Of a DNA stretch of 15,598 nucleotides, positions 1 to 15,598 are shown piece by piece. The stretch's first letter is position 1. Each line of letters begins with the position of its first letter. The stretch is from assembly GCA_041746575.1 (NCBI GenBank), contig JBGTGT010000104.1:1-15598 (forward strand). Direction: 5' to 3'. The stretch is from Microcystaceae cyanobacterium (GTDB taxonomy: Bacteria; Cyanobacteriota; Cyanobacteriia; Cyanobacteriales; Microcystaceae). Made by a program: the position numbers and the translations under genes. The notes beneath the pieces are model-generated. The model ran no database searches. It worked only from the letters and a program-made list of their open reading frames with translations, and had not been told where the DNA came from.

Positions 1-120
1 GACCATAAGAAACTCTGCTTAAATTAAAGTAGGGAAGCTGTATTTTGCCAAAACTTAGATAAGTATAGTATCTTTTTTATGTGAATTTTTTAGACATAAA
101 TATAATGATATGTCAAGTTA

Positions 121-140
121 ATTTAGATGCGTTTACCCTG
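121..140 (-). mobile_element. Probable IS terminal inverted repeat (ISAs1-like, CAGGGTAAACGCATCTAAAT on the minus strand) interrupting the PIN gene
   Basis: PIN homology stops abruptly after SEDMQD exactly at this sequence. The CAGGG-starting end resembles ISAs1-family termini, and it shares ATTTAGATGC with the repeat at 2772-2795. Confidence 0.5.
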
Positions 141-518
141 ATCCTGCATATCTTCAGAGTAAAGAATTTCTGCATTAACAGACAAAGCAATTGCTATAAT
201 CAGACTATCCCACAATGAGAATTGATATTGTAAGCGCAAATTAGATGAAGATTCAAGAATGGTTAAATTAAAGGAAATAACCTGACAGCGATTATATAAA
301 GATTGAATAACTTGTTTAACTTCTTCTTCTTGAAAGGAAGCTTTTTTTAATAAATTGACCGAAAGTTAATTGATAACTTGTGTACTGATTACTAAATTGC
401 TTTTTTGAGTTATTTCTGTTGCAATTTTGCGTTTTCTTTCTCGTTCATTGGGTTCAATTCTTTGGTCATCAAAAAGACGATATAACCAAACATTGGTATC
501 AATAAAATTGACTGGCAT
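123..518 (-). pseudogene. PIN-domain (VapC-like) toxin pseudogene
   Basis: Manual translation: MPVNFIDTNVWLY...ISTQVIN*LSVNLLKK...FSLWDSLIIAIAL...ILYSEDMQD. PIN motifs DTN, WDSLI and SED are present. There is an in-frame TAA at 368-366 (codon 51) and the C-terminus is replaced. Confidence 0.85.
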
Positions 519-523
519 AATGT

Positions 524-733
524 TTAATTGGAGCGTTCATAAATTTCTTCACGGGATAAGAATGAATCAACCAAAACAGGGTTATCAGTTAAAATATCTA
601 TAATATCGGCTGTTTTGTCAGATGAAGACAGTTCTGAAGTGTCAGCTAAGTTTTGGGTTTTAAATTGTTCAATCATTGCTTGAATTTGGGCAATCTGTTC
701 GGGTTTTAAGCCTGTTAAATTAATATTAACCAT
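524..733 (-). CDS. Small putative antitoxin of the PIN toxin
   Basis: 69 aa ORF ending 5 nt before the PIN start. The acidic C-terminal half ending in LSREEIYER is typical of VapB-like partners. Confidence 0.65.
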   Translation of the reverse strand: MVNINLTGLKPEQIAQIQAMIEQFKTQNLADTSELSSSDKTADIIDILTDNPVLVDSFLSREEIYERSN

Positions 734-834
734 AATGTTTAATCATTTTATTTTTTACAATTATAGCTGATCTCAATCATGAGAGAACATTTATCAAACC
801 TGTTAAGGATGTTGTTATCGTCAAATTTAGCAGA

Positions 835-1095
835 TTAAGCCACCTCAAGTTCATAATGTAAAACCAATAACTCATCTTCCTTTAAAATTGCCATCGCATA
901 TTCCCGTCCTTGACTATCAGCAAACTCTACTAAATATTGCTTTTCTTCTCCTCTTTCATAAACTTCTACCACCGTTCCCACCTGTCCACTCGGTAAGCTT
1001 TCAATAGACATAAATTCAGGTTCAACTAAAGTTAATCTTTCCTTAGCAATTGGATTAATAATCGCCACTGTATCTAACATTAAAATATTGTTCAT
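835..1095 (-). CDS. DUF4926-like small protein
   Basis: Motif LDTVA...GQVGTVVEVY...YLVEFADSQGREYAM...L, immediately downstream of the DUF6883-like gene. Confidence 0.75.
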   Translation of the reverse strand: MNNILMLDTVAIINPIAKERLTLVEPEFMSIESLPSGQVGTVVEVYERGEEKQYLVEFADSQGREYAMAILKEDELLVLHYELEVA

Positions 1096-1100
1096 GATAC

Positions 1101-1430
1101 CTACTTAATAAACGCAGAAATAAGACGAGGATTCGCATTTGTAGAAGTGACTTCCCAAATCGTCCGAAGTTGCATCCTTTCTTGATTCGGTATCGTCCAA
1201 TCTACCTTAAACTGTTGACCAAAATCTGTCTGTGCTTGCTGAACCACTTCCCCTTCAATGGCCGCTAGACGAATCATTGACAATAACAGTTCAGCATTTT
1301 CTTGAGTGATACCTAAACGAGCTTTAAAAACCCTAGCCTTATGTTTACCGCTAGAATGTTCAGGATTTAAGCAATAGTTAATTAACTTTTCCATTGCAAT
1401 CTCCGCTTGTTCCCCGTTAGGTAATTTCAT
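1101..1430 (-). CDS. DUF6883-like protein (putative toxin/nuclease partner of DUF4926)
   Basis: Motif MKLPN..A.I...KL..YCLNPEH..GKHKARVF...LG...W......PRLISAF. Confidence 0.72.
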   Translation of the reverse strand: MKLPNGEQAEIAMEKLINYCLNPEHSSGKHKARVFKARLGITQENAELLLSMIRLAAIEGEVVQQAQTDFGQQFKVDWTIPNQERMQLRTIWEVTSTNANPRLISAFIK

Positions 1431-1518
1431 ACTTTTACAGACAAGATAATTTAAAATGGGATTTTACACCCTTTAACTACAAACTAAAAAAACTCACCTC
1501 ACTATTAAACGATAAAAC

Positions 1519-1535
1519 TACTATTGAAAATAGTA
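1519..1535. promoter_or_regulatory. Perfect 7-3-7 palindrome (TACTATT-gaa-AATAGTA) upstream of cas6; possible operator
   Basis: Seen directly, 14 nt before the cas6 ATG in the divergent intergenic region. Function is inferred. Confidence 0.35.
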
Positions 1536-1549
1536 TATCAATCCTTCCC

Positions 1550-2263
1550 ATGCTTGCCAGCAACTCCCCCCTTCCCAACCCCTACATTGACCTAAAATTC
1601 CCCCTCACAGGTCACATCATACCCTTAAATCACGGCTATCCCCTCTATTCAGCTATATCTCACCAATTCCCCGTCATTCATAACCTAGACACCCTCAGCA
1701 TTCATCCCATCACAGGTAAACCCGAATTTCCCCACCTTCTCTACCTTACCGAAGACTCTTACCTCTGTCTGCGTCTTCCTATTAATCAAGTCCCTCTAAT
1801 CTACCGACTCGCAGGAAAAACCCTCAACCTCAATGACCATAAAATTCGCCTTGGATTACCAGAATCCACTTTTATCTCCCCTCATCATCACCTCTATTCT
1901 CGTCTTGTCGTTATTCGAGGATTTGATGAACCTCAAACCTTCCTTGAAGCAGCACAACGCCAACTAAACCAGCGTAACATAACCGCTACCTTATCCCTCA
2001 CGTCCCGACCCGAAGGTGAACCCATTCGACGTATAATCAAGATTAAAGGCAAAACCCTTGTCGGTTTCGGAGTCAAAATCAGCGATTTGAACGAAGAAGA
2101 CTCAATTTCACTACAAGAACAGGGAATTGGGGGAAAACACAAGATGGGATGCGGAGTGTTTATTAAGGCAGAGGGCAGAAGGCAGGAGGCAGGAGGAAAT
2201 AAAAGGGAGAAGGAAGGGATTAGGATTCAGAAATCAGAGAATAGAAGGCGAGAGGAAAGTTAA
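1550..2263 (+). CDS. cas6: Type I-B (Myxan) CRISPR endoribonuclease Cas6 (Cmx6), with a repeat-derived C-terminal tail
   Basis: N-terminal IDLKFPLTG..IPLNHGYPLYSAIS and the C-terminal glycine-rich loop LQEQGIGGKHKMGCGVF. Confidence 0.95.
   Translation: MLASNSPLPNPYIDLKFPLTGHIIPLNHGYPLYSAISHQFPVIHNLDTLSIHPITGKPEFPHLLYLTEDSYLCLRLPINQVPLIYRLAGKTLNLNDHKIRLGLPESTFISPHHHLYSRLVVIRGFDEPQTFLEAAQRQLNQRNITATLSLTSRPEGEPIRRIIKIKGKTLVGFGVKISDLNEEDSISLQEQGIGGKHKMGCGVFIKAEGRRQEAGGNKREKEGIRIQKSENRRREES
2166..2195 (+). repeat. Tandem heptamer (GGCAGRR) tract; left arm of a 30-bp inverted repeat
   Basis: AGGCAGAGGGCAGAAGGCAGGAGGCAGGAG matches the reverse complement of 2731-2760 at 27/30 positions. Confidence 0.9.
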
Positions 2264-2314
2264 AAAGGATATAATAAGCTTTAACGTCAAACTTCTGCCT
2301 TCAAACTTCTATCT

Positions 2315-2665
2315 ATGAGCTATAGAGAACAATTCATTTGGAAACGTGGAATTCAACTATCCGTAAACTGTTATCAATTAACTGAAAAATTCCCTAAGTC
2401 AGAATTATATGGACTTACAAGCCAAATAAGACGAGCTTCTGTCTCTGTTCCCTCTAATATTGCTGAAGGTTATGGCAGAAGAACCAAGAACGAGTATATT
2501 CAGTTCCTTCATATTGCATTGGGGTCTTTAAGAGAACTAGATACACAGCTAATCATAGCTAAAGAAGTAAAATTAGCTACTCCTGAATTATTTGACCCAA
2601 TTTTAGAAGAAGTAGATAGTATGCAAAGAATTTTAGTTTCTACTATTCAAAAGCTAAAGCCTTAA
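2315..2665 (+). CDS. Four-helix-bundle protein (23S rRNA IVP / bAvd-like superfamily)
   Basis: Signature W......L...Y.LT..FP..E.YGLTSQIRRASVSVPSNIAEG.GR....Y..FL.IA.GSL.EL.TQL.IA. Confidence 0.93.
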   Translation: MSYREQFIWKRGIQLSVNCYQLTEKFPKSELYGLTSQIRRASVSVPSNIAEGYGRRTKNEYIQFLHIALGSLRELDTQLIIAKEVKLATPELFDPILEEVDSMQRILVSTIQKLKP

Positions 2666-2691
2666 ATTTCCCCCCTACCCTTTTACCCTCC

Positions 2692-2795
2692 TAAGCTAAG
2701 ACGCATTTAAACTGGGTAGCGCGTAAATAGCTCCTGCCTCCTGCCCTCTGCCTCCTGCCTGTCCCCACAAACCAATTTAGATGCTTAACAGCTTA
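2692..2795. mobile_element. 104-bp MITE-like element with 24-bp imperfect terminal inverted repeats
   Basis: 2692-2715 TAAGCTAAGACGCATTTAAACTGG versus the reverse complement of 2772-2795, TAAGCTGTTAAGCATCTAAATTGG (18/24 identical). Confidence 0.55.
2731..2760 (-). repeat. Tandem heptamer tract; right arm of the 30-bp inverted repeat
   Basis: CTCCTGCCTCCTGCCCTCTGCCTCCTGCCT. Confidence 0.9.
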
Positions 2796-2831
2796 CTCTT
2801 CTGCCATCTGTTTCCTGCCCCCTGCCCCCAA

Positions 2832-4553
2832 ATGATAGCCACTTCAACCCCCCCCAAAATCCATCTGCACCTCAACGCACCTGACACCACCCTCATTCAT
2901 CGTGCAGGGATATTAGGGTTATGGATGACCCTTAAACAGCTAGAACAGCAATTTCCTACTCCTTTCCAACGTTTAGGCGGATTATCATGGAAATTAACCC
3001 CTGATAGTGTTAGTCTTGATTGGCAAGGACAAGATGAGGAAGTCTTAGATTGGCTACTTAAACAAGCGTTTCAAGTTGATGCGAAAGGCTTAATCAGCTT
3101 ACTAGGACTAAAACCTCAATTTATGCCTTTAATTAATAAAATACACCTACATCAAGCCTTAACCGCCACCTTACTACAACATAATCAATTTGTAACTCCC
3201 ATTACTCGCCAATACCAAGTCTATGGAATTAATTTAAAGAAAACTGCTCCTAATTATCTCTTAAATTTACTCATCAAAAGCCCTATTCCCCTACAATTTT
3301 ATCTATTAGCTAAAGGAAAATTAGATGCCATTAAATCTATCAACCTGACAGAAGATAAAGTTAACTGTCGCCTCAGCTATAAACGACTAGCAGACTATAT
3401 TCATCAAGACTTTAGCCAACAATTATGTCATCCTAAAACCCATCAATTAATCAAAGATTATATCCCGATTGTTAGTTGGTTGTATCCGGGGGCTATCATT
3501 CGACATGAATTAGTCAGAAAATTTAATCAATGTAAAGAACGTCCCGAATATGCTTTTGCCCTATTATTTTTACCAATAGCTTGTCACTATTTAATTTTAT
3601 CTAAAGGAATCAATGAACAACTAAAATCGAAGAAAAACCATCCTATTAAATACTTATTGGTCATTCCAGACTCTATTAACTTAGAAAAATCAGCCAAAAT
3701 ACGCTGGCGTTTAAATAATACTCATTATCGAGAGTTGTATGTTTCTAGTTTAGCCGAAGCTGGTTTAAATTATTATGTTAATGAAAATCAGCGTCACTTT
3801 TCCCCTCAAAGATGTCAAGTTATTCTCTATGATAAATTAATGAAAACCTCTCAACTCAGAAATCCTGTTGATATTCAAGACTTTTATATCACACCCAAAA
3901 ATCTGAAAACCTATCAACTTGCTCACCGTCATCTTCAACACAATCAACTTATACCAACTGAAGTAAACTTTCTCATTAGATTAAACTTAATTAGGGGAAT
4001 AATAGCTGAAAATATTCTTAAAAAACAATCGATTTGGCGAAATTTATGGTTAATCTTAAAACAAAAAGACCCCTCTGGTGAAATTAGACAGCAACTCAAT
4101 TACAATCAAACAGGATTATTCACCATGATAAAAAATGTTGATGAAATTACCAAATCTCATGATGCTTTTATTGACGTTATTCACGAAGCATTGAAAATGA
4201 TTTACGCTCAAATGTATCAAGATAATCCCGATTCAGCACCGAAAAAGATTGACAGAGAAAATGAACGCCTTAAATCTAAACTTTTAGATTGCTATAAAGA
4301 GGAAACCTTTCGACATCTCATGGCTAAATTACTCTCAAAAGCAGGGAATCTTTCAACCCTTAACGAAAACCGTAAATTAGTCTTACCAATTTTAACAGGT
4401 AAAATAGACTGGAAAGAAGCCAGAGATATTGCTTTAATTGCCTTATCCAGCTATCCCACCAAAGCAAGATTAAGTAGGCAAACTTTAGTCTTTTTTGCTT
4501 TTCCGCTACTCCTTGAGGTAGAACTTTATCAACTCGCTTTTGTTATTTTATAG
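2832..4553 (+). CDS. cas8: Type I-B (Myxan) Cascade large subunit Cas8 (Cas8b3/Cmx8); likely start 2832 rather than 2781
   Basis: N-terminal L.L.APDTTLIHRAGILGLWMTLKQL, WLYPGAIIRH, FALLFLPIAC.Y...L.VIPD, and position between cas6 and cas7. The ATG at 2781 lies inside a repeat. Confidence 0.9.
   Translation: MIATSTPPKIHLHLNAPDTTLIHRAGILGLWMTLKQLEQQFPTPFQRLGGLSWKLTPDSVSLDWQGQDEEVLDWLLKQAFQVDAKGLISLLGLKPQFMPLINKIHLHQALTATLLQHNQFVTPITRQYQVYGINLKKTAPNYLLNLLIKSPIPLQFYLLAKGKLDAIKSINLTEDKVNCRLSYKRLADYIHQDFSQQLCHPKTHQLIKDYIPIVSWLYPGAIIRHELVRKFNQCKERPEYAFALLFLPIACHYLILSKGINEQLKSKKNHPIKYLLVIPDSINLEKSAKIRWRLNNTHYRELYVSSLAEAGLNYYVNENQRHFSPQRCQVILYDKLMKTSQLRNPVDIQDFYITPKNLKTYQLAHRHLQHNQLIPTEVNFLIRLNLIRGIIAENILKKQSIWRNLWLILKQKDPSGEIRQQLNYNQTGLFTMIKNVDEITKSHDAFIDVIHEALKMIYAQMYQDNPDSAPKKIDRENERLKSKLLDCYKEETFRHLMAKLLSKAGNLSTLNENRKLVLPILTGKIDWKEARDIALIALSSYPTKARLSRQTLVFFAFPLLLEVELYQLAFVIL
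4125..4553 (+). CDS. cas11: Putative Cas11 small subunit translated internally within cas8
   Basis: In-frame ATG at 4125 with AGGA at 4112-4115. The context caggattattcaccATG resembles the cas7 start (cggagtttatcaccATG). Helical domain with F...IHEAL...W...RDIALIAL.SY. Internal Cas11 translation is established for types I-B, I-C and I-D. Confidence 0.7.
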   Translation: MIKNVDEITKSHDAFIDVIHEALKMIYAQMYQDNPDSAPKKIDRENERLKSKLLDCYKEETFRHLMAKLLSKAGNLSTLNENRKLVLPILTGKIDWKEARDIALIALSSYPTKARLSRQTLVFFAFPLLLEVELYQLAFVIL

Positions 4554-4579
4554 CCCTTTCTTAGTCGGAGTTTATCACC

Positions 4580-5455
4580 ATGCGATACTTATTTGGAAAC
4601 TTACTCACCCATCATGCTCCTGCTTCCTTAAACCGAGGTGAAAATGACGGAAATGAACAATTAATACAACAAATTATTTGGCAAAATGAACCCCATTCAA
4701 CCGTTTCTCCCTTTAGTATTCGTTGGAAAGTTCGCTATCAATTTCAAGAACAAAAAGAAGACGTTTACGAAAAATGGGACAAAGTTCAAAGAATTCGTGT
4801 TCCACAACCCAAACCTCATAATGCAGAGGATTTTATTGATGATGATGTCATGGGATTTATGGTAACAGAATCTGCAAAAAAGAATCAAAAAGGAACAAGT
4901 AATGCTCGTCAAGGTGCATTAGGGACAAACCGAGCCATTTCTTTAACCCCCTATGATGGTGCAACCTTTAACTATTACAATAGTGGTGAAAAAGATAAGC
5001 TTTCTATTCATAGCACGAATGTTCATAATACCTGTTATCAATATTGTTTTGCTTTAGATTCAAAACATTTAGTCAATAAATCTCGTATCCTTAAGGTGAT
5101 AGATGCTTTTATTCATCTAGGTCAAGTTGGGGGTCACTACAATGATTCTTTCTTCGATTTCTCACCAGAAAGTGTTGTTTTTCGCTGGACAAAAGATAAC
5201 TGTCCTCGCTTTCTTTATTGCTTTGAACAAGATGAAAATAAGCAAATTATTGCACCCAAGTTAGAAGAACAAGTCGAAGCAGAAGATATTCTCCCTCAAG
5301 AATTATGGATTGGGGGAGAAATTACCAAAAACTTAAATATTGAAAATGCTCATCTTCATAGAGGGATTAAAAAAACGGCTGAAAACCTTAAAGCAAAAAT
5401 TGTTGAAGACTTAAAACTACCTCCTGAAGAATCCCAAAAACAAGAAAACCAATGA
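4580..5455 (+). CDS. cas7: Type I-B Cas7 (Cst2/DevR)
   Basis: LFGNLLT....SLNRGE..GN...IQ, FIDDDVMGFM, NRAISLTPY.G, YQY.F.L, VGG.....FDFSPESVVFRWT; GGAG ribosome-binding site. Confidence 0.93.
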   Translation: MRYLFGNLLTHHAPASLNRGENDGNEQLIQQIIWQNEPHSTVSPFSIRWKVRYQFQEQKEDVYEKWDKVQRIRVPQPKPHNAEDFIDDDVMGFMVTESAKKNQKGTSNARQGALGTNRAISLTPYDGATFNYYNSGEKDKLSIHSTNVHNTCYQYCFALDSKHLVNKSRILKVIDAFIHLGQVGGHYNDSFFDFSPESVVFRWTKDNCPRFLYCFEQDENKQIIAPKLEEQVEAEDILPQELWIGGEITKNLNIENAHLHRGIKKTAENLKAKIVEDLKLPPEESQKQENQ

Positions 5456-6090
5456 AATCAGTTGCTATTTATATTGATGTTCCCGTTGCTACTTTCCGAC
5501 AATCTCATGCTAGAGAGTACGGGAAAACTTATCCTTATCCTCCCCATTCAACCGTTTACGGACTTTTGTTATCTTTAGTAGGTGAAATGGACATGAACAA
5601 GCATTGTGGGGTTCAATTAGCTATTGCAATGTTATCTCAACCTGCTAAATCGAAAACATTGAGAACCATTAATCGGTTTAAGTTCAAAAAACAAGATCAT
5701 CAAGGCAATAAACGACCCGATTATCAAGAAATCTTAACCGATATTCGTTTCATTGTTTGGGTACAATCAGCAGAAGATAAACATAATCCTACCTTACCAG
5801 AAAGACTAGAACAAGCCTTATTGAATCCTGATTCTGTGCAAAGATGGGGCGTATTATTCTTAGGAGAAAGCGATGATTTAGTGAATAATATTAAGTTAGT
5901 CCCTGACAATTTTGAAGTTAAATCAAGAGAATGGCTATTAAGAGACGATAAGGGCTGGATTACTTTACCTTATTGGGTAGATCATTTTAACTTTCAAGGA
6001 ACACGATGGTTTCGCTATCGCTTAGAAGCAATTGCTTGTCAATCGCCACCAGAATCAGCTTATGTAACAATTAAACAAGACAAATATTAA
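5452..6090 (+). CDS. cas5: Type I-B (Myxan) Cas5 (Cmx5/DevS)
   Basis: VPVATFRQSHAREY..TYPYPPHSTVYGLLLSLVG, RPDYQEILT, LFLGESDDLV; ATGA overlap with cas7. Confidence 0.95.
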   Translation: MKSVAIYIDVPVATFRQSHAREYGKTYPYPPHSTVYGLLLSLVGEMDMNKHCGVQLAIAMLSQPAKSKTLRTINRFKFKKQDHQGNKRPDYQEILTDIRFIVWVQSAEDKHNPTLPERLEQALLNPDSVQRWGVLFLGESDDLVNNIKLVPDNFEVKSREWLLRDDKGWITLPYWVDHFNFQGTRWFRYRLEAIACQSPPESAYVTIKQDKY

Positions 6091-6177
6091 ACTTTTCAGT
6101 AGGTTTTTGATTAGCTTAAAGAGTTGCTTGTAGAATTATTTGTACGAATAGGCTAAAACAGTCTTTTAGCTTATGCC

Positions 6178-6436
6178 GTGATTTATTGCTTGATGTTATA
6201 AGGCGTTACTTAACCTGTCAGAGTGGCTGGTTTTGTTTCAGTGTATTGTGATTTATTGCTCGATGTCGTAAGGCGTTACTCACGTATCTAGCCAGTATGC
6301 AATCGCTAAATTCGCTTGTAATCCATTACTTGATGTTTTAAAGCGTTACTCACGTCGATTATTCAGTTTTGCCTAATCTTCTAGAACAGTGATCTATTAC
6401 TTGATCTATTACTTGATGTCGTAAGGCGTTATTCTC
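6178..6436 (+). CRISPR. Short degenerate type I-B CRISPR array, 4 repeats and 3 spacers
   Basis: Repeats: 6178-6213, 6248-6283 (GTGATTTATTGCTCGATGTCGTAAGGCGTTACTCAC), 6318-6353, and 6389-6436 (48 bp, with an internal 12-bp duplication). Spacers: 6214-6247 (34 bp), 6284-6317 (34 bp), 6354-6388 (35 bp). The GATGYCGTAAGGCGTT hairpin resembles cyanobacterial I-B repeats. Confidence 0.93.
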
Positions 6437-6638
6437 AAAGCAGAGAATTTTTGTGTAGTATTTTTTGGATTCTCGTTTTTATGTTACAACGAAGTCATAA
6501 GGGTTTGGATGCCCAAAACAAGGATATTTATTCAATGCAAGTGTAGTATATTTAGGCAATAATTAATAGCGCAAAGCATTATTTAAGCTAAAATTTTAGT
6601 AGTTCTCTCTTACTAAGACTTTACTCCTCTCTAATTTC

Positions 6639-8522
6639 ATGTTGAGCTTTTTCCCAACTCCCTACCCAGACGAGTTACTTTACAGCATATTGGCTCGTTA
6701 TCATCTGCGTAGTGGCAATAATAGCCCTAAAATCACCCTTAAAGAACTTTTTGACGACCCTAATACTATCGCAACAGTTGACCTTCCTGCTAATCTTGAC
6801 GCGCTGATTCAACAACTTTCCCTATTCTCTCACTACACCGTCGAAGATTTAATCAATAATTACACCCTTTACCCCTACTATGCCCCATTTATGACCCCTC
6901 AACGGGCAATTACCATCCAAAACTCCATGAAAGCACAATATGGAGGCAATATTCATACTCGTATTGGGATTGTCGCCAGTTCTATTCCCTTGCTTCAATA
7001 CCTTCGTTTTTGTCCAGATTGCCTTAAAGAAGACGAAAAACAGTATGGGGAAGCTTATTGGCATCGAATTCATCAAACAGCAGGGGTTTTAGTTTGTCCT
7101 CATCATGGCATTCCCCTACACGATAGCACCGTCGCTTTTCAAAGACTCAACCGCCACGAATACGAAATTGTCAGTCCTCAAAATTGCCAATTAAACACTT
7201 CGATACCTCACTATAGTTCTCAAGCCTTAAAAAGCTTCATCCAACTAGCTCAAGATATTGCTTGGTTATTGGAACATCCTCAATCTTCTCAAACCTTTGA
7301 TTATTACCGTCAACGGTACTTAAACCGTATGATTGAGCGAAAACTTGCCACAGCCTCCCATAGAGTCCATCAAAAGCCCTTAATTGATGAATTTATCTTC
7401 TTCTACGGACGAGATGTATTAGAACATCTCAACTGCATGATTGATTATAACGATTCTAGTAACTGGTTATCGAATATTGTGCGAAAAAATCGCAAAGTGT
7501 TCCATCCGATTCGTCATATCTTAATGATGCGCTTTTTATTTGGTTCTGCTAAAGCCTTTTTTAAGAATGAAGACAATTACAAACCCTTTGGTGATGCACC
7601 TTGGTTATGTTTCAACGGTGCAGTTGAGCATTATCAGCAACCTGTCGTTACTAATCTTCAAATTAGCCATTGTTTAGAGAATAAAAAGCCATTAGGGACG
7701 TTTACTTGCTCCTGTGGCATGATTTACAGTCGTACTGCTTCTGATAAAACCCCGAAAGATAATTATTCCATCGGAAGAGTGATTACTTATGGCGAAATCT
7801 GGGAAAAACGCTTACAAGAATTGGTAGAAGGTGAAAAATTAGGATTAAGAGCCACGGCTAGAGCTTTAAAGGTAGATACCCGCACAATTAACCGCTATAT
7901 TGATAAATTAGGGCTTAATGCTTCTTGGCAATCTTTACCCCCTCAACCGACACCAGCAGACACTCAACCCCCTAATAATCATAATCCTCAAGCTGAATAT
8001 CGTCAGCAATGGTTAGACCTTCAAAAAACCTATCCTGACGCAACAAAAACCACCTTTAGAAAGCAATTTCCTGCGCTTTATATATGGCTGTATCGCAATG
8101 ATAAAGACTGGTTAAATGAGCATTCACCCACCTTACAGCGTCCTGTTTCTACTAACAACCGAGTCAATTGGCAAGAACGAGATAAACAGATTAAACTGCA
8201 AGTAGAAGAAGCGGTGACTCAACTGCTCAATCTTGATATTCCCCAACGTATAACCATCGGTAAAATCGGCACAATGACGGGTTTAAAAGCCATGTTAGAG
8301 CAGAAGTTGGATAAATTACCCTTAACTCAAGCTTATCTCTTAGAAGTCACTGAATCGGTCACAAAGTTCCAAAATCGGCGAATTCAATGGGCAATTGCGG
8401 AAATTCACCGACGAGGCGAAGAAGTTAAAACATGGAAGGTGATGCGGTTAGCAGGAATGAAGGAACATGAATTTGAGAGGGTGGAAAAGATGGTTTTGAG
8501 TATGACGAAAAGTGTAGTGTAG
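6639..8522 (+). CDS. tnsD: Tn7-like target-selector protein TnsD (TniQ domain plus C-terminal DNA-binding extension)
   Basis: FFPTPYPDELLYSILARY, LRFCPDC....YGEAYWHRIHQ..GVLVCPHH zinc motifs, HPIRHIL, an HTH-like GLRATARALKVD, LY.WLYRNDKDWL, RVNW..RD. At 627 aa it is much longer than a Cascade-partner TniQ. Confidence 0.92.
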   Translation: MLSFFPTPYPDELLYSILARYHLRSGNNSPKITLKELFDDPNTIATVDLPANLDALIQQLSLFSHYTVEDLINNYTLYPYYAPFMTPQRAITIQNSMKAQYGGNIHTRIGIVASSIPLLQYLRFCPDCLKEDEKQYGEAYWHRIHQTAGVLVCPHHGIPLHDSTVAFQRLNRHEYEIVSPQNCQLNTSIPHYSSQALKSFIQLAQDIAWLLEHPQSSQTFDYYRQRYLNRMIERKLATASHRVHQKPLIDEFIFFYGRDVLEHLNCMIDYNDSSNWLSNIVRKNRKVFHPIRHILMMRFLFGSAKAFFKNEDNYKPFGDAPWLCFNGAVEHYQQPVVTNLQISHCLENKKPLGTFTCSCGMIYSRTASDKTPKDNYSIGRVITYGEIWEKRLQELVEGEKLGLRATARALKVDTRTINRYIDKLGLNASWQSLPPQPTPADTQPPNNHNPQAEYRQQWLDLQKTYPDATKTTFRKQFPALYIWLYRNDKDWLNEHSPTLQRPVSTNNRVNWQERDKQIKLQVEEAVTQLLNLDIPQRITIGKIGTMTGLKAMLEQKLDKLPLTQAYLLEVTESVTKFQNRRIQWAIAEIHRRGEEVKTWKVMRLAGMKEHEFERVEKMVLSMTKSVV

Positions 8523-8552
8523 TTTTTAAATTACAAAGTTTGATTTTCCAAT

Positions 8553-9137
8553 TCAAACAAAAGCACGAAGCGTAATTGAAATTCTTCGCCCTTTATTTTT
8601 TGAGAAGTGAGGAACTTCATGAGTCCAGTATTCATTAGTCTCATACGGCATAATAAATACCCCTCGATTTTCAGCAATAAAATCTTTATAGTTTGAACTG
8701 AGTTTGGATCTTAATCGAAAAATTCGTGTTTGACCTAAAGATATTGTGACGATAGGTGTTCCGTCAATTAATCCTATGGTACTATCTTGATGTTTACCAA
8801 TATAATGCTTTTGAGATCCTTCATACCAATTAACTAAAACACCATTAAGACGACTATCGATAGCATTCTTAGACCATTTTAAAAAAGGGGTTAATAAGGT
8901 CGGAAGAGGTAAAGCTTTATTAATATTTCCAGTATAGTAGTAATCTTTATCATAGGCTTGTTGCCAACGGGGAGTTTTTACCCATCGTCCATGTATCATA
9001 ATCGTATGAAAATCTTGAGGATGGAGTTTCCATAAATCCTCAAATAAATGATCATTTGTATAAACATCAGGAGGCAAGATGCCCGTATAAAACTTACATT
9101 GTTTGTCTAATTCATGGCAAGTAAAGTCAGCATACAT
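8553..9137 (-). CDS. AlkB-like 2-oxoglutarate/Fe(II) dioxygenase (ALKBH2/3-like)
   Basis: TPRWQQAY, LVNWY, HQD (HxD), IVTISLG..R.F, WTHEVP, RISITLR. Confidence 0.9.
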   Translation of the reverse strand: MYADFTCHELDKQCKFYTGILPPDVYTNDHLFEDLWKLHPQDFHTIMIHGRWVKTPRWQQAYDKDYYYTGNINKALPLPTLLTPFLKWSKNAIDSRLNGVLVNWYEGSQKHYIGKHQDSTIGLIDGTPIVTISLGQTRIFRLRSKLSSNYKDFIAENRGVFIMPYETNEYWTHEVPHFSKNKGRRISITLRAFV

Positions 9138-9205
9138 AAAGAGTCACGATAATTAGTAGAAATTGAGTCTCAATTTATATAAAAATAATTGTCATTTGTC
9201 AATAG

Positions 9206-12200
9206 TTAAGGAGAACCTTCTTGATTATCAGATTGTGGTTGACCACTATAATATTTATGTCGAAGGATGTTGAGTTCGGGAAAATCAAATATATCAGATG
9301 GACTTCCTTTTAAAGCAAGATTACGAGCATCCTTAAGCATAGGATCATTTACGTCTTCAGTACAATCTTGTACTATATTACTACCAAATAAACCTAAGAT
9401 TAAAATATAATTTTTTACTAATTGATTAGGATAATCTAACTCTGAATTAAGAGCTTTTTTGACAGATTGTAAATGAGAGTCTTGTTTAAATGAACTATAT
9501 TTATGTCCTAAATATAGCCAAGTTTCAGTTGCCATAAGCTTCTCTACTATACTAGACGATTCTAACGTAGAGAATTCAACAATTATTTCCCATTCTTGAC
9601 CATCAATATTGGGTAAGAAGCGCATCGCTCTTAAGGTAATTGCTTTTAGATATTCAGAAGATAATTCACGATTTGTGTAATTTAATAAAGTTCTAATCTG
9701 AGGGCAGAATCCCTGTCGAGCCAAGCTTTCTAGTATATGAATAGGATCTCGAATAATCCAGAATTTTTCACCGCATAAGATTTCCATTAAAGGTGTAACT
9801 ATCTCCTCAAATCCTAAGATCGAAAGTCTAAATAATGTAAAACGAATATATCTTTGAAATTTTCTTTGTTCGTTCAGTTGGTCATTATTCAATTCACATA
9901 GCTTTTGCCAGCTATCACAAAATAATTCCACTAATTCGTTTCGCAATTGTTTGCGTTTTTCATCCAAAATGTTATTTGAAGACTTAAAAATAGCTGCCCA
10001 AATCATAGTTTCAGAATATGAATTATCATTAGGAGGTAATGAATTTTTTATTTCTCCTTCCAAGTCCAAAATATCTAATTGTTGTTTTAAATCTTTCTCT
10101 CTTCTTTTTTCATTGAATAAATATTTATATATCCTTCTACTAAGTTCAGTCGGCTGAATATAAATATGAATAGCTCGAAGACACTGCTGATATTGCTCTA
10201 TATTATGCCACCACCGTTCATCATCATCATAAGATTTTTCTAATAAACTACGATGCTCTGGATTCAAAATATACAGATAATTTATGATACACTCAAAGTC
10301 TTCTTTTAATCTATCTAAACACTGATCTTCTTGTTGTAAAAATTCATCGCGGCTTAATTTCTCTGTTTTATTTCGATTCAGATTTAGCTCTAGCTTATCC
10401 AATTCTTCAACTAAAATCTTTTCTACCTCATCCACATCTTCTGGATCTGGAACAATAAAAATCATATCATCTACATAGCGATGAAGTTCAGCTTTTGGTT
10501 CTCTATTTAGTCCAAATCTAGTGTCTATTGCAGTGAGGTATATATTCTGGTAAAAACCAGAGCCAATACTTCCTTGAGTTATTCCTTTCCCTACTTCATG
10601 TTCATCAATATTTTTAGAAAGTAATAAGCGAATTAGCCAGCGTATGCGCTCACTCTCTGTTCTAAACTCATGACAAAGTTCATCGTATAATTGAGATTGA
10701 ATTATTTTTGTGTAAAATGACTCAATATCAACTCGCAGAATACCACAATTAGGATATTTTTTGGCACTATCCTTTGCTTGTGTCATATAAGCTTGATAAG
10801 CATCAAACCAATACCCATAAAAATATTCTGTCTGTCTTCCTCTATAATCTCCTGCAATTTTATAAGCATAACTATTACCTCGTAACTTAGATGCTTTGTC
10901 TCCTAATTGTTGAATAATTGCCACAGAAAGGATTTCTTCTTCAATGCGAGAAAGCCCTTTAGGGCGAGTATCATTGATATTCTTAGGAACTTTATAATGA
11001 ATGCTTTCATCTGTTAAGGCAACCTCACGAGCATAAGCACACAATTTTTCTCTTAAATCACCAAGTCTAGCCTCAAGATTCATTTCAAATAGACGCATTT
11101 CCGTTTCATCATACAAGGTTTCTCGTAAAAGATTATGACGCGCTCTCGCCCATGCTAATCTAAGATTATCTAGACTGATAACATCATTCCAATGAGAATC
11201 TCCTTCTAAATCAGCACTCCAAATTGTCTGCAAGTCTGCATAGAACTCCACAGGATTACCTATTTTTGCTCTCCCTTTATCTTTCCAGTAACTACCTTCA
11301 GGATTTTCAAAATAAATCTTATGGTAATCTGAGTGATTCTGATTAATTTTATGCTTATTTCCTAAAATGAGTTGTAAAGTATGTGCCATTTCTTGAATTC
11401 TTTGACTGAGAGGAACTTCACTATTTGTACCGATTTGAACCTGATTTTCCATATTTTTAGTACCAATCGTTAAGATGTGCATTACATCTATGGGAACATC
11501 TTCTATCAATTGTCTATAGGATTGGGCTTCAGCAGTACCAAGTCGTATGCCATTTTCTTCAACAGATTCATCAATATTAATATCTAAACTTTTTAACTCA
11601 TCTATTTTTGCTTTCTCGTTTCTATAATTTTGACTAAAGGGAGAAATCACATTAAGTTGCATCACTAAAGTGTTTGTAAAGCATGGTAGCTGAGAAGATG
11701 CACGTTCTTTGTCAAGCAACTGACGTATCTCAATTGAAGCATTTGGAAATCCCTTAATGACTGATTTATAATCTAGATTGACTAGATCATTGGTCAATAA
11801 TTTTAGATGTTCCATCATTTTATGATAGAGTGCAATAGCTCGATGACTTGGATCTACACCGATGAAAAAAAGATTTATATCTTTGGTCAATTTTCCACTT
11901 TCTTTTAAATACAGAACCGCTTCTAAAAAAGCAGCAGAACCAGCACCAGCACCACAACCTATGTCCAATACGCAGATTTTCTGATTATGTCTTAACCAAT
12001 TGATCAGTTTTTCTTTTGTTATGATATATTCTAGAGAATGCGCTGCTTTAAAATAATGACTAGGAAAAAGATTATAATATTGAAACGCAATATGTTTTAA
12101 GTCTTCTTGTTGTAAGATTTCCTTCCATTTGCCTCGTGGATCTATTGTCTTATATCCTTTAGCCTGTTCAAGATTATCAAGCCACTGATGTACCGCAGTA

Positions 12201-12256
12201 TAAGCTTCTGCGATAATGGGATGAAAAGTGCGATGGGTGTTTGAATTACTGTTCAT
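9206..12256 (-). CDS. Fusion of a class I SAM-dependent methyltransferase, a reverse transcriptase and a C-terminal alpha-helical (HEAT-like) region (UG/Abi, DRT-like)
   Basis: VLDIGCGAGAG (DIGCGAG at 11945-11965) and FIGVDPS. RT motifs: NLRLAW, VPK...TRP, SYAY, VDIESFYTKI, GITQGSIGSGFYQNIYL, RYVDD (YVDD at 10466-10477), LNLNRNKT. Followed by about 380 aa of Leu/Glu-rich sequence, probably helical. Confidence 0.9.
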   Translation of the reverse strand: MNSNSNTHRTFHPIIAEAYTAVHQWLDNLEQAKGYKTIDPRGKWKEILQQEDLKHIAFQYYNLFPSHYFKAAHSLEYIITKEKLINWLRHNQKICVLDIGCGAGAGSAAFLEAVLYLKESGKLTKDINLFFIGVDPSHRAIALYHKMMEHLKLLTNDLVNLDYKSVIKGFPNASIEIRQLLDKERASSQLPCFTNTLVMQLNVISPFSQNYRNEKAKIDELKSLDINIDESVEENGIRLGTAEAQSYRQLIEDVPIDVMHILTIGTKNMENQVQIGTNSEVPLSQRIQEMAHTLQLILGNKHKINQNHSDYHKIYFENPEGSYWKDKGRAKIGNPVEFYADLQTIWSADLEGDSHWNDVISLDNLRLAWARARHNLLRETLYDETEMRLFEMNLEARLGDLREKLCAYAREVALTDESIHYKVPKNINDTRPKGLSRIEEEILSVAIIQQLGDKASKLRGNSYAYKIAGDYRGRQTEYFYGYWFDAYQAYMTQAKDSAKKYPNCGILRVDIESFYTKIIQSQLYDELCHEFRTESERIRWLIRLLLSKNIDEHEVGKGITQGSIGSGFYQNIYLTAIDTRFGLNREPKAELHRYVDDMIFIVPDPEDVDEVEKILVEELDKLELNLNRNKTEKLSRDEFLQQEDQCLDRLKEDFECIINYLYILNPEHRSLLEKSYDDDERWWHNIEQYQQCLRAIHIYIQPTELSRRIYKYLFNEKRREKDLKQQLDILDLEGEIKNSLPPNDNSYSETMIWAAIFKSSNNILDEKRKQLRNELVELFCDSWQKLCELNNDQLNEQRKFQRYIRFTLFRLSILGFEEIVTPLMEILCGEKFWIIRDPIHILESLARQGFCPQIRTLLNYTNRELSSEYLKAITLRAMRFLPNIDGQEWEIIVEFSTLESSSIVEKLMATETWLYLGHKYSSFKQDSHLQSVKKALNSELDYPNQLVKNYILILGLFGSNIVQDCTEDVNDPMLKDARNLALKGSPSDIFDFPELNILRHKYYSGQPQSDNQEGSP

Positions 12257-14705
12257 AGATGTACTCTTTAGGAATTAAGTTAATAAAAGGACTGGGAGAT
12301 TTAGAATAACCTTTAGAATCTTTGGCAAAAGAAGAAATAAATAACTTTTTCTTAGCTCTTGTCATTGCTACATAAAATAATCTTTTTTCCTCTTCTAATT
12401 TGTCATCACGAATGCTAAAAAAGCTTGGAAATTCATCTTCTGTCGCACCTGCAATAAAAACAATGTCAAATTCTAAACCTTTCGATTGATGCACAGTAAT
12501 AATAGGTATTTGATTGTTATTTTTGGAAATTTGATCTAAATTTTTAGCAAGTGCTGTGTGTTCTAAGAGAGTTCGTAAAGCCGTGTCAGGATGTAAGTCA
12601 TTATCATCAAGTTCTTGAAAAATGTTGACCAAAAATAATAAATTTTGTGAGCGTTTAGTGTCCGATTGATAATAACTATAAAGCTGAGATTCTATCAAGA
12701 CTTTGTTTAATAATTCTGGTGGTCTTAAATTTTGACTTGAATCACGCCAATCATTTACCTGTTTAGCTAGTTCTTTAAATTCTTCTTGATATTGAATTCC
12801 TAAATTTTTACGAGCATCTGAATTTGCTTGAATGAGTGGAATTAATACGGCTAATAAATCAATAGTCGTTCTGACATCATCCATTCCCTTATGAGTGGGA
12901 AGATGTTTAAGATTAAGATGTTTAGCTAAAGACTCTAAAGTGTAACGTTCTGCTGTAATAAAACGTCTCGATAAATCTAAAGTGTCTTCCCAAGGTAATT
13001 TTGGAACACTTAAACCAGCTTTTTGTGCTTGAGCCGTTATCATCTTAATATCAAAGATTATATTGTGTCCAACTAGCATTGAATCTTTTATAAAATCAAA
13101 AAATTTATTGAAAGCATTTTGAGGTGATTCTCCATATTTTTCAAGAAATAGATCACTATATCCGTGAATTAACTCTGAGTCACCGACACTAACTGTATTA
13201 ACAATATAAGTATGAAATCTATCTTTAGGTAATCCATTGATTAGACGAATAGCTGCAATTTCTATTACTTCATCCTGACTAATTGAAAATCCTGTTGTTT
13301 CAACATCAAAGACAACAATTGAACCTGACGTATAGGCTTTTATTAATTCTCCAAAAGGATCTCCCTGAATGAAGGTTTTACTTGATACCATATCCGTTAA
13401 GCTCAAACCACATATTTCTCCCTTTTTCATCAAATTTTTAATGGTTTTGTCACCAATTTCTCGCTTGGGGCGTAGTAACATTCTACGCATTGCACTCGTA
13501 TCGAAAGGATTTATAATCAAACGCAAATAGGCTAAAGCATCTTTGACCTCTTGGTGCATAAAAAACTGAAATTGTTCAATTGTTAAACAAGGAATATTCA
13601 TTTTTTCTAACATTCGACTAACAATTTCTGTTCGCTTATGACTTCGGGAAAGAACTGCGACTTTGCTGTAGTCAATATTCGTCTGTGTTTTTGCTAAATC
13701 TTGTACTTTGTGGCTAATCCATTCTGCTTCTGATTCTTCGTTTTTTGCTCTATAAACTTGAATAGATTCTCCCTGTTTGCAGTTAGGAGAAGGGCTAATT
13801 TGAGTTTGTCGAGTTTCAAAAGAGTCTGCAAAAGCTGAAGCCGCTTTTAGCAATGTTTTTGTCGCTCGATAGTTCCAAGTTAAAAGATACTTGGTAGGAT
13901 GGAAATTATCATTAAATTGTGAAATAACTTCGTAAGGTTCAGAACCTCGCCATTCATATATGGTTTGATCTAAGTCTCCTATCATAGTTAAATTACCACT
14001 TCGCTTTGCCAAGTGATTCACAACTTGATATTCAGAAAGATGAGTATCTTGAACTTCATCAACCTGAATAAAATCAAATTTTTCTGACCAGCGTTGATTG
14101 ATGTCTTTTTCTTGAGATAACATGGCTCTGACATAAAACAGCAAATCCGCAAAGTCTAAAGCATGACGTTTTTGCAGTATCGTTTGATATTGACTAGCAC
14201 AATCAGCAAATTTATTTCCTCGTAATAAATACAGTTCGTTTAATGAAATATTCAAAGACAATTGATGATTTTTCGCTTGATTTTTGCAAGTAGTTATTTT
14301 AAAGAAAACGCTTTGTGCTTCCCGATGATCTGATAAACTAAAAACTTCTTTAACTAATTCAATACAGTCAGCGTCATCATAAACGACAAAATCCGATGGT
14401 AAACCAATCTCACGAGCTTCTGTCCTCAGCATAGATGAGCATAAGCCATGAAAGGTTTTTATAGTTAACTCGGATAAGTGCTGTGGACAATACCTAGCTA
14501 ATCTTTCGCTCATTTCCTTGGTGGCTCGATTAGTAAAAGTTAGGCATAGTATTTTATTGGGTGAAATGCCTTTATTTATAGCGTGTACGACTCGCTCAGT
14601 TAAAACACGAGTTTTCCCTGTACCAACTGGCGCAAGCACCAAAACAGCACCTTGAATGTGATTGATAATAGCTCTTTGTTCAGCGTTTAGCTCATTTGGA
14701 GACAC
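12246..14705 (-). CDS. UvrD/PcrA-like SF1 helicase with an inserted DnaQ-like DEDDh 3'-5' exonuclease domain (GTG start)
   Basis: Helicase motifs: APVGTGKT, LTFTNRA, TFHG, VDEVQD, GDLDQTIYEWRG, NYR, TVHQSKGLEF, EEKRLFYVAMTRAK. Exonuclease motifs: FDVETTG, GHNIIFD, HKGMDD. Confidence 0.93.
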   Translation of the reverse strand: MSPNELNAEQRAIINHIQGAVLVLAPVGTGKTRVLTERVVHAINKGISPNKILCLTFTNRATKEMSERLARYCPQHLSELTIKTFHGLCSSMLRTEAREIGLPSDFVVYDDADCIELVKEVFSLSDHREAQSVFFKITTCKNQAKNHQLSLNISLNELYLLRGNKFADCASQYQTILQKRHALDFADLLFYVRAMLSQEKDINQRWSEKFDFIQVDEVQDTHLSEYQVVNHLAKRSGNLTMIGDLDQTIYEWRGSEPYEVISQFNDNFHPTKYLLTWNYRATKTLLKAASAFADSFETRQTQISPSPNCKQGESIQVYRAKNEESEAEWISHKVQDLAKTQTNIDYSKVAVLSRSHKRTEIVSRMLEKMNIPCLTIEQFQFFMHQEVKDALAYLRLIINPFDTSAMRRMLLRPKREIGDKTIKNLMKKGEICGLSLTDMVSSKTFIQGDPFGELIKAYTSGSIVVFDVETTGFSISQDEVIEIAAIRLINGLPKDRFHTYIVNTVSVGDSELIHGYSDLFLEKYGESPQNAFNKFFDFIKDSMLVGHNIIFDIKMITAQAQKAGLSVPKLPWEDTLDLSRRFITAERYTLESLAKHLNLKHLPTHKGMDDVRTTIDLLAVLIPLIQANSDARKNLGIQYQEEFKELAKQVNDWRDSSQNLRPPELLNKVLIESQLYSYYQSDTKRSQNLLFLVNIFQELDDNDLHPDTALRTLLEHTALAKNLDQISKNNNQIPIITVHQSKGLEFDIVFIAGATEDEFPSFFSIRDDKLEEEKRLFYVAMTRAKKKLFISSFAKDSKGYSKSPSPFINLIPKEYIYEQ

Positions 14706-14964
14706 AAAGACTTCTCTCTTTATTCGATACTTAATCCTAAAATTCCCCTATTTCAGAAAATATTTTATAGGTGTAATAAATCTTCATAATCTGCTGGCTG
14801 TCTTGTTAGGATCAACGAAGGGTAAAGAGTAACAAGCTTCCTCACACCTCTTTCATTAGTTCATGCGTTTTTATTCCCTACTCCTACAAGCCTTGATAGA
14901 GATGGCGATCACTTTATCAGATAGTTTATCTGATCCTTATATGTAGATTAGCCTTTTCTGTTTT

Positions 14965-15127
14965 TAGAAATTTACCAACTTTATTATCTAATAAAAGTGA
15001 GTTTAACAACTGCCAAAGAATTGACTAGCTATAATTTACCAACTTTATTTTTTGCAGTTCTCTTTTACCCAACGAGAGATTAAGCATTAGATTCATAGAA
15101 ATTTACCAACTTCATTATGTATCTACA
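14965..15127 (-). repeat. Tn7-like transposon end (left-end architecture) with three spaced TnsB-binding sites
   Basis: AATTTACCAACTTYATT at 14969-14985, 15033-15049 and 15100-15116. The minus strand reads TGTAGATA-CATAATGAAGTTGGTAAATT, i.e. a TGT-starting 8-bp terminus followed by a site resembling Tn7's GACAATAAAGTC. Candidate 5-bp target-site duplication ATATC at 15128-15132. Confidence 0.85.
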
Positions 15128-15462
15128 ATATCGATATTGTGAAAGAAAACTAAAACGGTCGCAAAGACTTGTTTCTCGTAAAATCAAAGGTTCTGGTAAC
15201 AGGAGTAAATCTAGAGTTAAATTAGGTAAAGTTCACCTCAAAATAAGTAGGCAGCGTAAAGACCATGCTGTGAAGTTAGCGCGGTGCGTAATCACATCTA
15301 ACGATGTAGTAGTCTATGAAGATTTGAGGATTAAGAACTTAGTGAAAAACCACTGTCTTGCTAAGTCAATTAACGATGCTGGATGGTATCAATTTAGAGT
15401 TTGGTTGGAGTATTTTGGTAAAGTATTTGGGCGATTGACTGTTGCGGTTAATCCTGCATATA
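15128..15462 (+). pseudogene. tnpB: Internal fragment of an IS200/IS605-family tnpB
   Basis: YR..ERKLKRSQR.VSRK.KGS.NR.K.R..L.KVH.KI.RQRKD, VVVYEDL.IKNLVKNHCLAKSI.DAGW.QF...LEY, VNPAY. Lacks the N-terminus/RuvC-I and the C-terminal zinc finger/RuvC-III. Confidence 0.9.
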
Positions 15463-15598
15463 AGTAGCTAGGCAGAATTAAATAGAAAACGTTCTGTAGT
15501 ATGTTGCGATCGTTGTGCGCGAGTTTCTACACTCTCGATTACAGTGATCGCCAAATCATATTCGTCTTCAAAAATCCGACCAGCCAGTTCATGTGTTT
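15463..15598 (-). mobile_element. IS630-family element, 3' end (transposase C-terminus 15468-15598, partial)
   Basis: Minus-strand translation THELAGRIFEDEYDLAITVIESVETR...ERFLFNSA* resembles cyanobacterial IS630 transposase C-termini. The element starts right after a TA (15461-15462), where tnpB homology breaks. Confidence 0.72.

Follow-up and report, generated by a model that had tools for sequence, protein, structure and literature searches.

A 15,598-nt stretch of DNA from a Microcystaceae cyanobacterium (GCA_041746575.1, contig JBGTGT010000104.1, positions 1-15,598 of the forward strand), hereafter called the window, carries a gene for a reverse transcriptase (RT) that is fused to an N-terminal methyltransferase domain and is overlapped at its start by a helicase gene. 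The RT is, with near certainty, a member of UG35, a Class 1 family of the unknown group/abortive infection (UG/Abi) RTs, and its methyltransferase domain resembles Rsm22/METTL17 proteins in its predicted fold. The two genes and the parts of the RT protein are as follows.

9206..12256, minus strand: UG35 reverse transcriptase of 1016 amino acids (aa), ordered as methyltransferase, RT, helical repeats and conserved tail (PADLOC RT_UG35, structure model).
11213..12241, minus strand: class I S-adenosylmethionine (SAM)-binding methyltransferase fold, aa 6-348 (structure search, conservation, motif scan).
10325..11200, minus strand: RT domain, aa 353-644, with D510, QG at 561-562 and RYVDD at 593-597 (YVDD codons at 10466-10477).
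9302..10324, minus strand: alpha-helical repeat region, aa 645-985, a Class 1 hallmark (secondary structure of the model; AbiK and DRT6 alignments).
9236..9289, minus strand: conserved C-terminal tail, aa 990-1007, E-P-x-x-L-R-x-x-Y-Y, with the candidate priming tyrosine Y1003 (conservation).
12246..14705, minus strand: partner gene of 819 aa, a UvrD-type helicase with an inserted DEDDh 3'-5' exonuclease at 12852-13316 (PADLOC RTasHel, Pfam).

The RT protein is encoded by a stop-free minus-strand frame (9206-12256), which ends 68 nt from the next gene. A preliminary description of this DNA had reported a single 1016-aa frame with a SAM-binding motif at aa 98, YVDD at aa 594-597 and no VTG motif, all of which was borne out: the motif scan located DxGxGxG from aa 98 and YVDD from aa 594, and detected neither VTG nor CxxC in the 1016-aa protein. 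Pfam RVT_1 matches at aa 494-635 (E 3.6e-13), methyltransferase models match weakly (best E 0.0079), and no maturase, HNH or Cas1 domain lies above cut-off in Pfam, NCBIfam or PADLOC, as had also been stated. A full-length AlphaFold2 model built from 40 homologues (mean predicted local distance difference test score, pLDDT, 83; predicted template modelling score 0.81) shows a seven-stranded methyltransferase fold at aa ~6-348, the RT at ~353-644, an all-helical region at ~645-1000 and then a short tail. The fusion is conserved and is not an artefact, a concern that the preliminary description had raised. The search for homologues returned 104 at E<=0.001, most of them spanning 98-100% of the query and the named ones mainly cyanobacterial. 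A profile of the methyltransferase domain gave 326 matches over 1.84 billion representatives, and among the 150 matches listed, all 95 proteins of at least 400 aa carry an RT, the other 55 being short pieces.

The family assignment comes from the profile search. PADLOC RT_UG35 matches aa 7-1013 with 1235.5 bits, compared to 163 bits for RT_UG25, 79 for UG36 and at most 96 for the remaining groups; in 22 of 27 members, the methyltransferase domain also gives a match to RT_UG25. The suspicion that the clade was already named among the UG/Abi groups has proved right, and a mechanism was described in none of the papers found. A group II intron origin finds no profile support (TIGR04416, 59 bits against a cut-off of 300; no Rfam intron match), nor does a retron origin (no VTG; NF038233, 41 bits against a cut-off of 235; no flank in common with relatives), so that neither of the two origins named in the preliminary description as refuting its reading applies. 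According to Mestre et al. 2022, UG35 belongs to the Class 1 RTs, combines an N-terminal methylase with helical repeats and is accompanied by a UvrD-like helicase of cluster 22 (PMC9226505). The family is therefore already catalogued and the locus in itself is unsurprising; the literature searches returned no experimental work on any UG35 protein, and as far as they show, the family is known from computation. What is new here is the Rsm22-like fold, the tail tyrosine, the exchange of partners and the probable setting as cargo of a CRISPR-Tn7-like element.

The methyltransferase domain was folded alone (pLDDT 87) and compared by VIA alignment with 48,161 solved chains. The best match is trypanosome mt-SAF1/Rsm22 (6sg9_F1; Z 20.6, 264 residues, root-mean-square deviation (rmsd) 3.9), followed by yeast Rsm22 (8d8j_0; Z 18.9) and human METTL17 (8csp_7; Z 18.5), with the following row at 13.6. 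The full-length model returned the same nine leading VIA rows as the isolated domain, and the highest Foldseek template modelling score (0.53) also belongs to Rsm22. The AlphaFold and Foldseek runs that the preliminary description had proposed thus identify the N-terminus as a class I (Rossmann-type) methyltransferase fold. Sequence comparison points weakly in the same direction as the structure: hhalign with 62 sequences against 11 bacterial Rsm22 gave 87.7% (E 3.4e-6) over 53 columns, the part in common being motif I together with the helix that precedes it, and nine of the 11 bacterial Rsm22 rank in the top 30 of 3,609 frames, with weak E-values and mixed with other genes of the genome. The likeness suggested by the models is one of fold, and hence a claim about how the domain may work rather than about membership. 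The conserved residues form the pattern P65-x-H67-x-x-K70, D98-G100-G102-G104, D135 and N202; H67, K70, D98, G100, G102, G104, D135 and N202 are each conserved in 56-62 of the 62 sequences, and the window protein has every one of them. In Atlas, the leading clusters for the methyltransferase are unnamed, and one of them, with PF11312 in 13% of its members, provides a lead.

The Rsm22/METTL17 proteins bind RNA and serve in ribosome assembly. Yeast Rsm22 showed methylation activity on 18 mitochondrial tRNAs in vitro (PMC8171064), a cysteine cluster of Rsm22/METTL17 binds Fe-S or Zn (PMC8171064, PMC9892005), and cryo-electron microscopy showed that Rsm22/METTL17 occludes the mRNA channel and holds h31 (PMC9892005). 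The literature searched yielded no link between an Rsm22-like fold and an RT system, and the term Rsm22 is absent from the covered part of the supplement of Mestre et al. 2022, outside which the domain-annotation Table S2 lies. A literature lead that combined Rsm22, phage and RT was set aside, for Rsm22 there is a prophage insertion site.

The catalytic residues of the RT (D510, Q561, R593, D596 and D597) are invariant in 62 of 62 sequences. At codon 570 (window 10547-10549), beside the QG motif, the window protein has Q in place of the A seen in 54 of 62 sequences and in the four closest relatives that were checked. Structural alignments that span both the RT and the helical region of the window protein are those to AbiK (window protein aa 367-993, 444 residues), DRT6 (window protein aa 363-977, 384 residues) and Abi-P2. 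On the RT core alone, DGR, CAPP, DRT9, DRT2 and group II RTs score equally or higher, so that the fold by itself does not place the RT; the best whole-model Foldseek match is G2L4 RT. The Class 1 enzymes studied to date are reported as untemplated and often protein-primed, with anti-phage activity in the members tested, and they prime from tyrosines at differing sites (10.64898/2026.02.16.706125; PMC12783706); DRT3b primes from Y666, which lies in a tail after the helical repeats (PMC13174585). In UG35 the tail motif occurs in 52 of 62 sequences, compared to a mean of 2.7 and a maximum of 7 in control windows, and the mean conservation of the tail (0.48) equals that of the RT core (0.48), against 0.34 for the helical repeats. 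By analogy with DRT3b, Y1003 (56/62) is the priming candidate, with Y480 (58/62) and Y689 (57/62) next. When the RT core (aa 352-720) and the tail (aa 984-1016) were predicted as a complex, the score was 0.00, which is evidence neither way. Rfam gave three matches, each below its gathering score and inside coding sequence, and no conserved flanking RNA was recognised: none of 15 relatives matched the downstream flank of the window RT, and 1 of 13 matched its upstream flank (20 nt). AbiK-like, protein-primed or untemplated synthesis, as supposed in the preliminary description, is still the best guess, in view of the AbiK and DRT6 alignments and of the flanks.

The partner helicase, which the preliminary description had missed together with the transposon setting, overlaps the RT start by 11 nt and matches PADLOC RTasHel with 936 bits. 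Its Walker A and B motifs and the residues D467, E469, D552, H605 and D610 are invariant in 14 of 14 sequences. A scan of genomes yielded at least 38 loci, comprising 34 of UG35, one ambiguous between UG25 and UG35 (L034) and three of other groups (L035-L037). Among the 34 UG35 loci listed, the helicase lies upstream and intact in six and upstream as a remnant in three; it lies downstream of an RT that has a ribbon-helix-helix head in nine (one cut by a contig end, one broken); a divergent DUF1848 gene without helicase is present in five; four have neither despite full flanks; and seven are fragments or lie at contig edges. A quick IQ-TREE tree of UG35 relatives, with 31 rows (30 loci and the window), five fragments and L035-L037 left out, and other RT groups represented by one UG25-like row, places each layout in its own supported group (Shimodaira-Hasegawa-like approximate likelihood ratio test 100, 100 and 97), with the window inside the helicase-upstream group; L001 had been labelled 'edge' in it before its remnant was seen. 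The DUF1848 branch, with its divergent gene and no helicase, includes L009, L010, L012, L025, L029 and L060. CxxxCxxC is present in seven of the seven DUF1848 proteins checked, and an Atlas search with DUF1848 gave DUF1848 only. The branch with the ribbon-helix-helix head (L014-L019 and L021-L023) has altered methyltransferase residues, and at L032:9353-12946 a UG35 RT bears an N-terminal NACHT helical domain (NNH2).

Neither the RT gene nor the helicase gene behaves as a strict toxin or antitoxin. Three relatives, two of them metagenome-assembled, keep intact RT catalytic residues beside a wrecked helicase (L001, a 24-aa remnant; L008, a 55-aa remnant; L016, a stop at codon 227 with a match to 321), and the helicase is thus no strict antitoxin; L013 keeps the helicase and has an interrupted RT. 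In a helicase-side search of metagenomic loci (the best 80 of 559), an RT adjoins the helicase in 10 of 17 close loci (>=55%), a distant RT is present in 1 of 14 at 45-55%, and none is present in the 49 below 45%. Close UvrD-DEDDh helicases without an RT occur at L065, L068, L078, L084, L085 and L103, where no common replacement partner was seen. Of 401 genomes of the phylum, 4 contain UG35, as does none of 20 others of the same family, and the neighbours of the relatives include Iet, pPIWI-RE and RmrA-like genes. Viral contigs held at least 58 loci, all of them short RT-domain matches (E 4e-8 or weaker), with no full-length UG35 among the matches listed. The distribution of UG35 is mobile and patchy.

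The two genes lie among features of a Tn7-like element:

1550..8522, plus strand: carrier element with cas6, cas8, cas7 and cas5 (type I-B/MYXAN), a mini array and tnsD (profile matches).
6176-6438: mini array of four degenerate repeats and three spacers, the third spacer longer and partly duplicated.
6639-8522, plus strand: tnsD (profile match).
8553..9137, minus strand: AlkB-like 2-oxoglutarate-Fe(II) oxygenase (PF13532), 68 nt downstream of the RT on the same strand.
14969..15127, minus strand: Tn7-like end with three 17-nt repeats, spaced by 64 and 67 nt, and a TGT terminus at 15127.

The order is thus cas6, cas8, cas7, cas5, array and tnsD, then AlkB, RT and helicase on the opposite strand, and then the spaced 17-nt repeats. 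Going by the layout of Tn7 ends, the three-repeat end would be the left end. A second contig of the genome (C126, ~8900-14750) contains tnsA, tnsB and a tniQ-like frame, and similar repeats that lie close together there form an end; the gene beside them is presumably glmS-like, judged from its start. The 5-mers that flank the two putative ends differ between the window and this contig, so there is no target duplication in common, and tnsA, tnsB and tnsC are off the window. Since the RT pair is located between tnsD and the Tn7-like end, it is best read, from the gene order, as transposon cargo of an element that is not closed. Tn7-like elements are reported to carry defence cargo, defensive RTs among them (PMC8649781). 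In its cas6/8/7/5 genes, mini array, tnsD and Tn7-like end, the carrier resembles the type I-B CRISPR-associated Tn7-like transposons of cyanobacteria. No target of the array spacers was found in the genome, where the best non-self match is 24 of 33. The AlkB-like oxygenase was considered as a third component and ruled out, since none of the 38 and none of the 89 related loci examined contain it; it is probably unrelated cargo. Promoter and terminator scans stayed at chance level (36 vs. 31.1 and 4 vs. 3.3, respectively), and the listing of RNA runs contained no RNA holder.

Several other features were observed around the element. Contig C77 of the genome (1544-4943) has a second cas6-cas8-cas7 set, 78-89% identical and accompanied by DUF4926, so that the genome may contain two related elements. 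Between cas6 and cas8 of the window, a four-helix-bundle gene of the 23S rRNA IVP family (2315-2665) is bracketed by 30-nt inverted purine-rich repeats (2166-2760) and resembles a small mobile insert. A DUF6883 and DUF4926 gene pair upstream of cas6 (835-1430) is possibly of toxin-antitoxin type, and an IS200/IS605 tnpB-like fragment without a start (15117-15467) begins exactly at the Tn7-like end.

These data directly show the family and the order of the domains, the integrity of the catalytic residues, the partner gene, the Rsm22/METTL17-like fold and the mobile, patchy distribution; the mechanism that we build on them is inferred in all its steps. The UG35 module is probably an abortive-infection defence carried as transposon cargo. 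The RT would synthesise single-stranded DNA (ssDNA) without a template, primed from its own tyrosine, with Y1003 in the tail as the first candidate and then Y480 and Y689. The covalent DNA could serve as a signal that controls the fused SAM-binding domain, comparable to the nitrilase of DRT1 and the RNase of DRT4, in which a DNA adduct has been reported to regulate the fused effector (PMC13275509; 10.64898/2026.10.27.754916). On phage infection, the Rsm22-like domain would then methylate, or bind and block, an RNA of translation (tRNA or small-subunit rRNA), and the cell would stop. The helicase-exonuclease would be a replaceable helper. It would trim or unwind the DNA, starting at the free 3' end, and determine the threshold, without being required for keeping the RT harmless. 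Taken as a whole, this reading, in which protein-primed, untemplated ssDNA controls an Rsm22-like domain that arrests the infected cell and a helicase-exonuclease tunes it, falls somewhat short of an even chance. Its most specific part, namely an RT-controlled Rsm22/METTL17-like domain that serves as an immune effector, either by methylating tRNA or by blocking the small ribosomal subunit, is doubtful. The preliminary description had offered two roles for the methyltransferase. Of these, the role of sensor or effector fits the data better, whereas marking of the product or template is weakened by the lack of DNA-methylase motifs in all 62 sequences and by Rsm22/METTL17 being the closest folds.

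A number of observations weigh against this proposal. For the likeness of the domain to Rsm22, the main contrary signal is a PADLOC mad2 match at aa 78-154 (E 1.3e-8), found in 15 of 27 members. Foldseek's leading rows by E-value are small-molecule methyltransferases, the Rsm22-type matches have an identity of 8-10% and an rmsd of 3.6-4.2 over 248-264 residues, and a shared fold shows no function. A narrower hhalign with 27 sequences gave only 50.5% against bacterial Rsm22. The Fe-S cysteine cluster, which is present in the 11 aligned bacterial Rsm22, occurs in none of the 62 UG35 sequences, and PF09243 matches none of the proteins of this genome or the 27 domain sequences; because of these two absences, the rRNA-binding surfaces may be missing from the domain. 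For yeast Rsm22 itself, a loss of SAM binding and a structural role are reported (PMC9892005). In the branch with the helicase downstream, H67, K70, G102 and N202 are mostly replaced, indicating that catalysis by the domain is not needed in every UG35. None of the candidate tyrosines Y1003, Y480 and Y689 is invariant, and the tail end has a pLDDT of only 56 in the model. In addition, Mestre et al. 2022 list the defence prediction for UG35 as inconclusive (PMC9226505), and the activity of UG35 proteins rests on inference throughout.

Other explanations assign the central role differently. The RT might produce ssDNA constantly, which the helicase and the 3'-5' exonuclease, as a stand-in for ExoI, would clear until a phage DNA-binding protein blocks clearance and toxic DNA builds up, the methyltransferase fold being structural or a SAM sensor. 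Such clearance logic is described for DRT4/ExoI and DRT3/RecBCD, the DEDDh residues are invariant in 14 of 14 sequences, and the polarity of the exonuclease suits a 5'-blocked product. None of 151 genomes of the phylum contained the C-terminal family of ExoI (PF08411), and the partner is the sole full-length match among the two PF00929 matches of this genome, the other being partial; but 13 of 14 control genomes lack PF08411 too, which makes its absence unremarkable. A built-in eraser of this kind is unlikely, given that L001, L008 and L016 keep the RT catalytic residues beside a wrecked helicase, and that among the loci listed five have DUF1848 without a helicase and four with full flanks lack both. 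If instead the helicase-exonuclease were the effector and, once loaded or activated by the ssDNA of the RT, destroyed DNA of the phage or the host as the UvrD partners of other defence systems do, the matches of GajB models to the helicase (100-312 bits) would be explained, and so would its breakage, as expected of a costly gene, in 4 of 19 helicase-branch loci listed (L001, L006, L008 and L016). Yet, among the best 80 of 559, no RT accompanies the helicase in 7 of 17 close metagenomic loci (in 4 of the 10 whose flanks both reach at least 500 nt) and in 49 of 49 distant ones. An RT is likewise missing beside it in 4 of the 6 genomes that carry its close form, and the DUF1848 branch has no helicase, which makes the effector role distinctly improbable.

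That the methyltransferase marks the DNA product or the template of the RT, as the preliminary description had considered, would account for its presence always in cis (the 95 of 95 listed matches noted above), for the mad2 match and the weak matches of type II methyltransferase models to the domain, and for an adjoining AlkB-like demethylase. [DNS]PP[YFW] and PC are catalytic motifs of DNA methyltransferases (N6A/N4C/C5). None of the 62 sequences has them, the 50 best VIA rows include no DNA methylase, mad2 covers the SAM-binding strands only and AlkB is absent from the 38 and 89 related loci, all of which leaves marking improbable. A module for DNA damage or stress rather than defence, in which RT end-filling is combined with UvrD, radical-SAM-type DUF1848 and AlkB-type neighbours, would agree with the origin of all partners in repair-type families, with CxxxCxxC in DUF1848, with G2L4 RT as the best whole-model match and with the inconclusive published association with defence. 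It has a slim chance against the rare, patchy and often decaying occurrence of the system, its position as transposon cargo and a Class 1 anatomy whose tested members are anti-phage.

The fused and partner enzymes of Class 1 RT systems are described as poorly understood (10.64898/2026.02.16.706125). For UG35, the Rsm22-like fold shifts the first substrate to be considered from DNA to the RNA of translation, the tail motif offers point mutants for priming, and the losses of the helicase and the partner swaps predict which parts are dispensable. The window copy can be used as a test case because both of its genes are intact and its methyltransferase residues are canonical. If the proposal were true, an RT-controlled effector that modifies RNA or blocks the ribosome would add a new chemistry to RT-based immunity, and it would represent a bacterial defence use of a fold that otherwise belongs mainly to mitoribosome assembly.

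Among known systems, Rsm22/METTL17/mt-SAF1 (PF09243) proteins have the closest solved folds and share with the UG35 domain a P-x-(T/H)-Y helix before motif I. The Fe-S cysteine cluster is theirs and not that of UG35, which has the RT in place of their C-terminal domain. AbiK, DRT4, DRT6, DRT3b and DRT7 have, as UG35 has, an RT followed by helical repeats, with an identity of 12-17% in structural alignments, and the tail tyrosine of DRT3b has a conserved counterpart in the UG35 tail. These five are protein-primed and template-free, and none has a methyltransferase; the likeness of UG35 to them is one of anatomy. The methylase-fused or methylase-associated RTs UG25 and UG36 are alike in their linkage of methyltransferase and RT, but their bit scores are far lower and their partners differ. 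With the UG35 system of Mestre et al. 2022, the locus shares the full-length profile, the N-terminal methyltransferase, the C-terminal helical repeats and the adjacent helicase, an anatomy without difference. The covered part of that paper assigns DUF1848 to UG25 only and calls the UG35 domain just 'methylase' (PMC9226505); compared to this description, DUF1848 is here found with one UG35 branch, the helicase contains a DEDDh exonuclease, and the fold of the methyltransferase domain is narrowed by the models to an Rsm22-like one.

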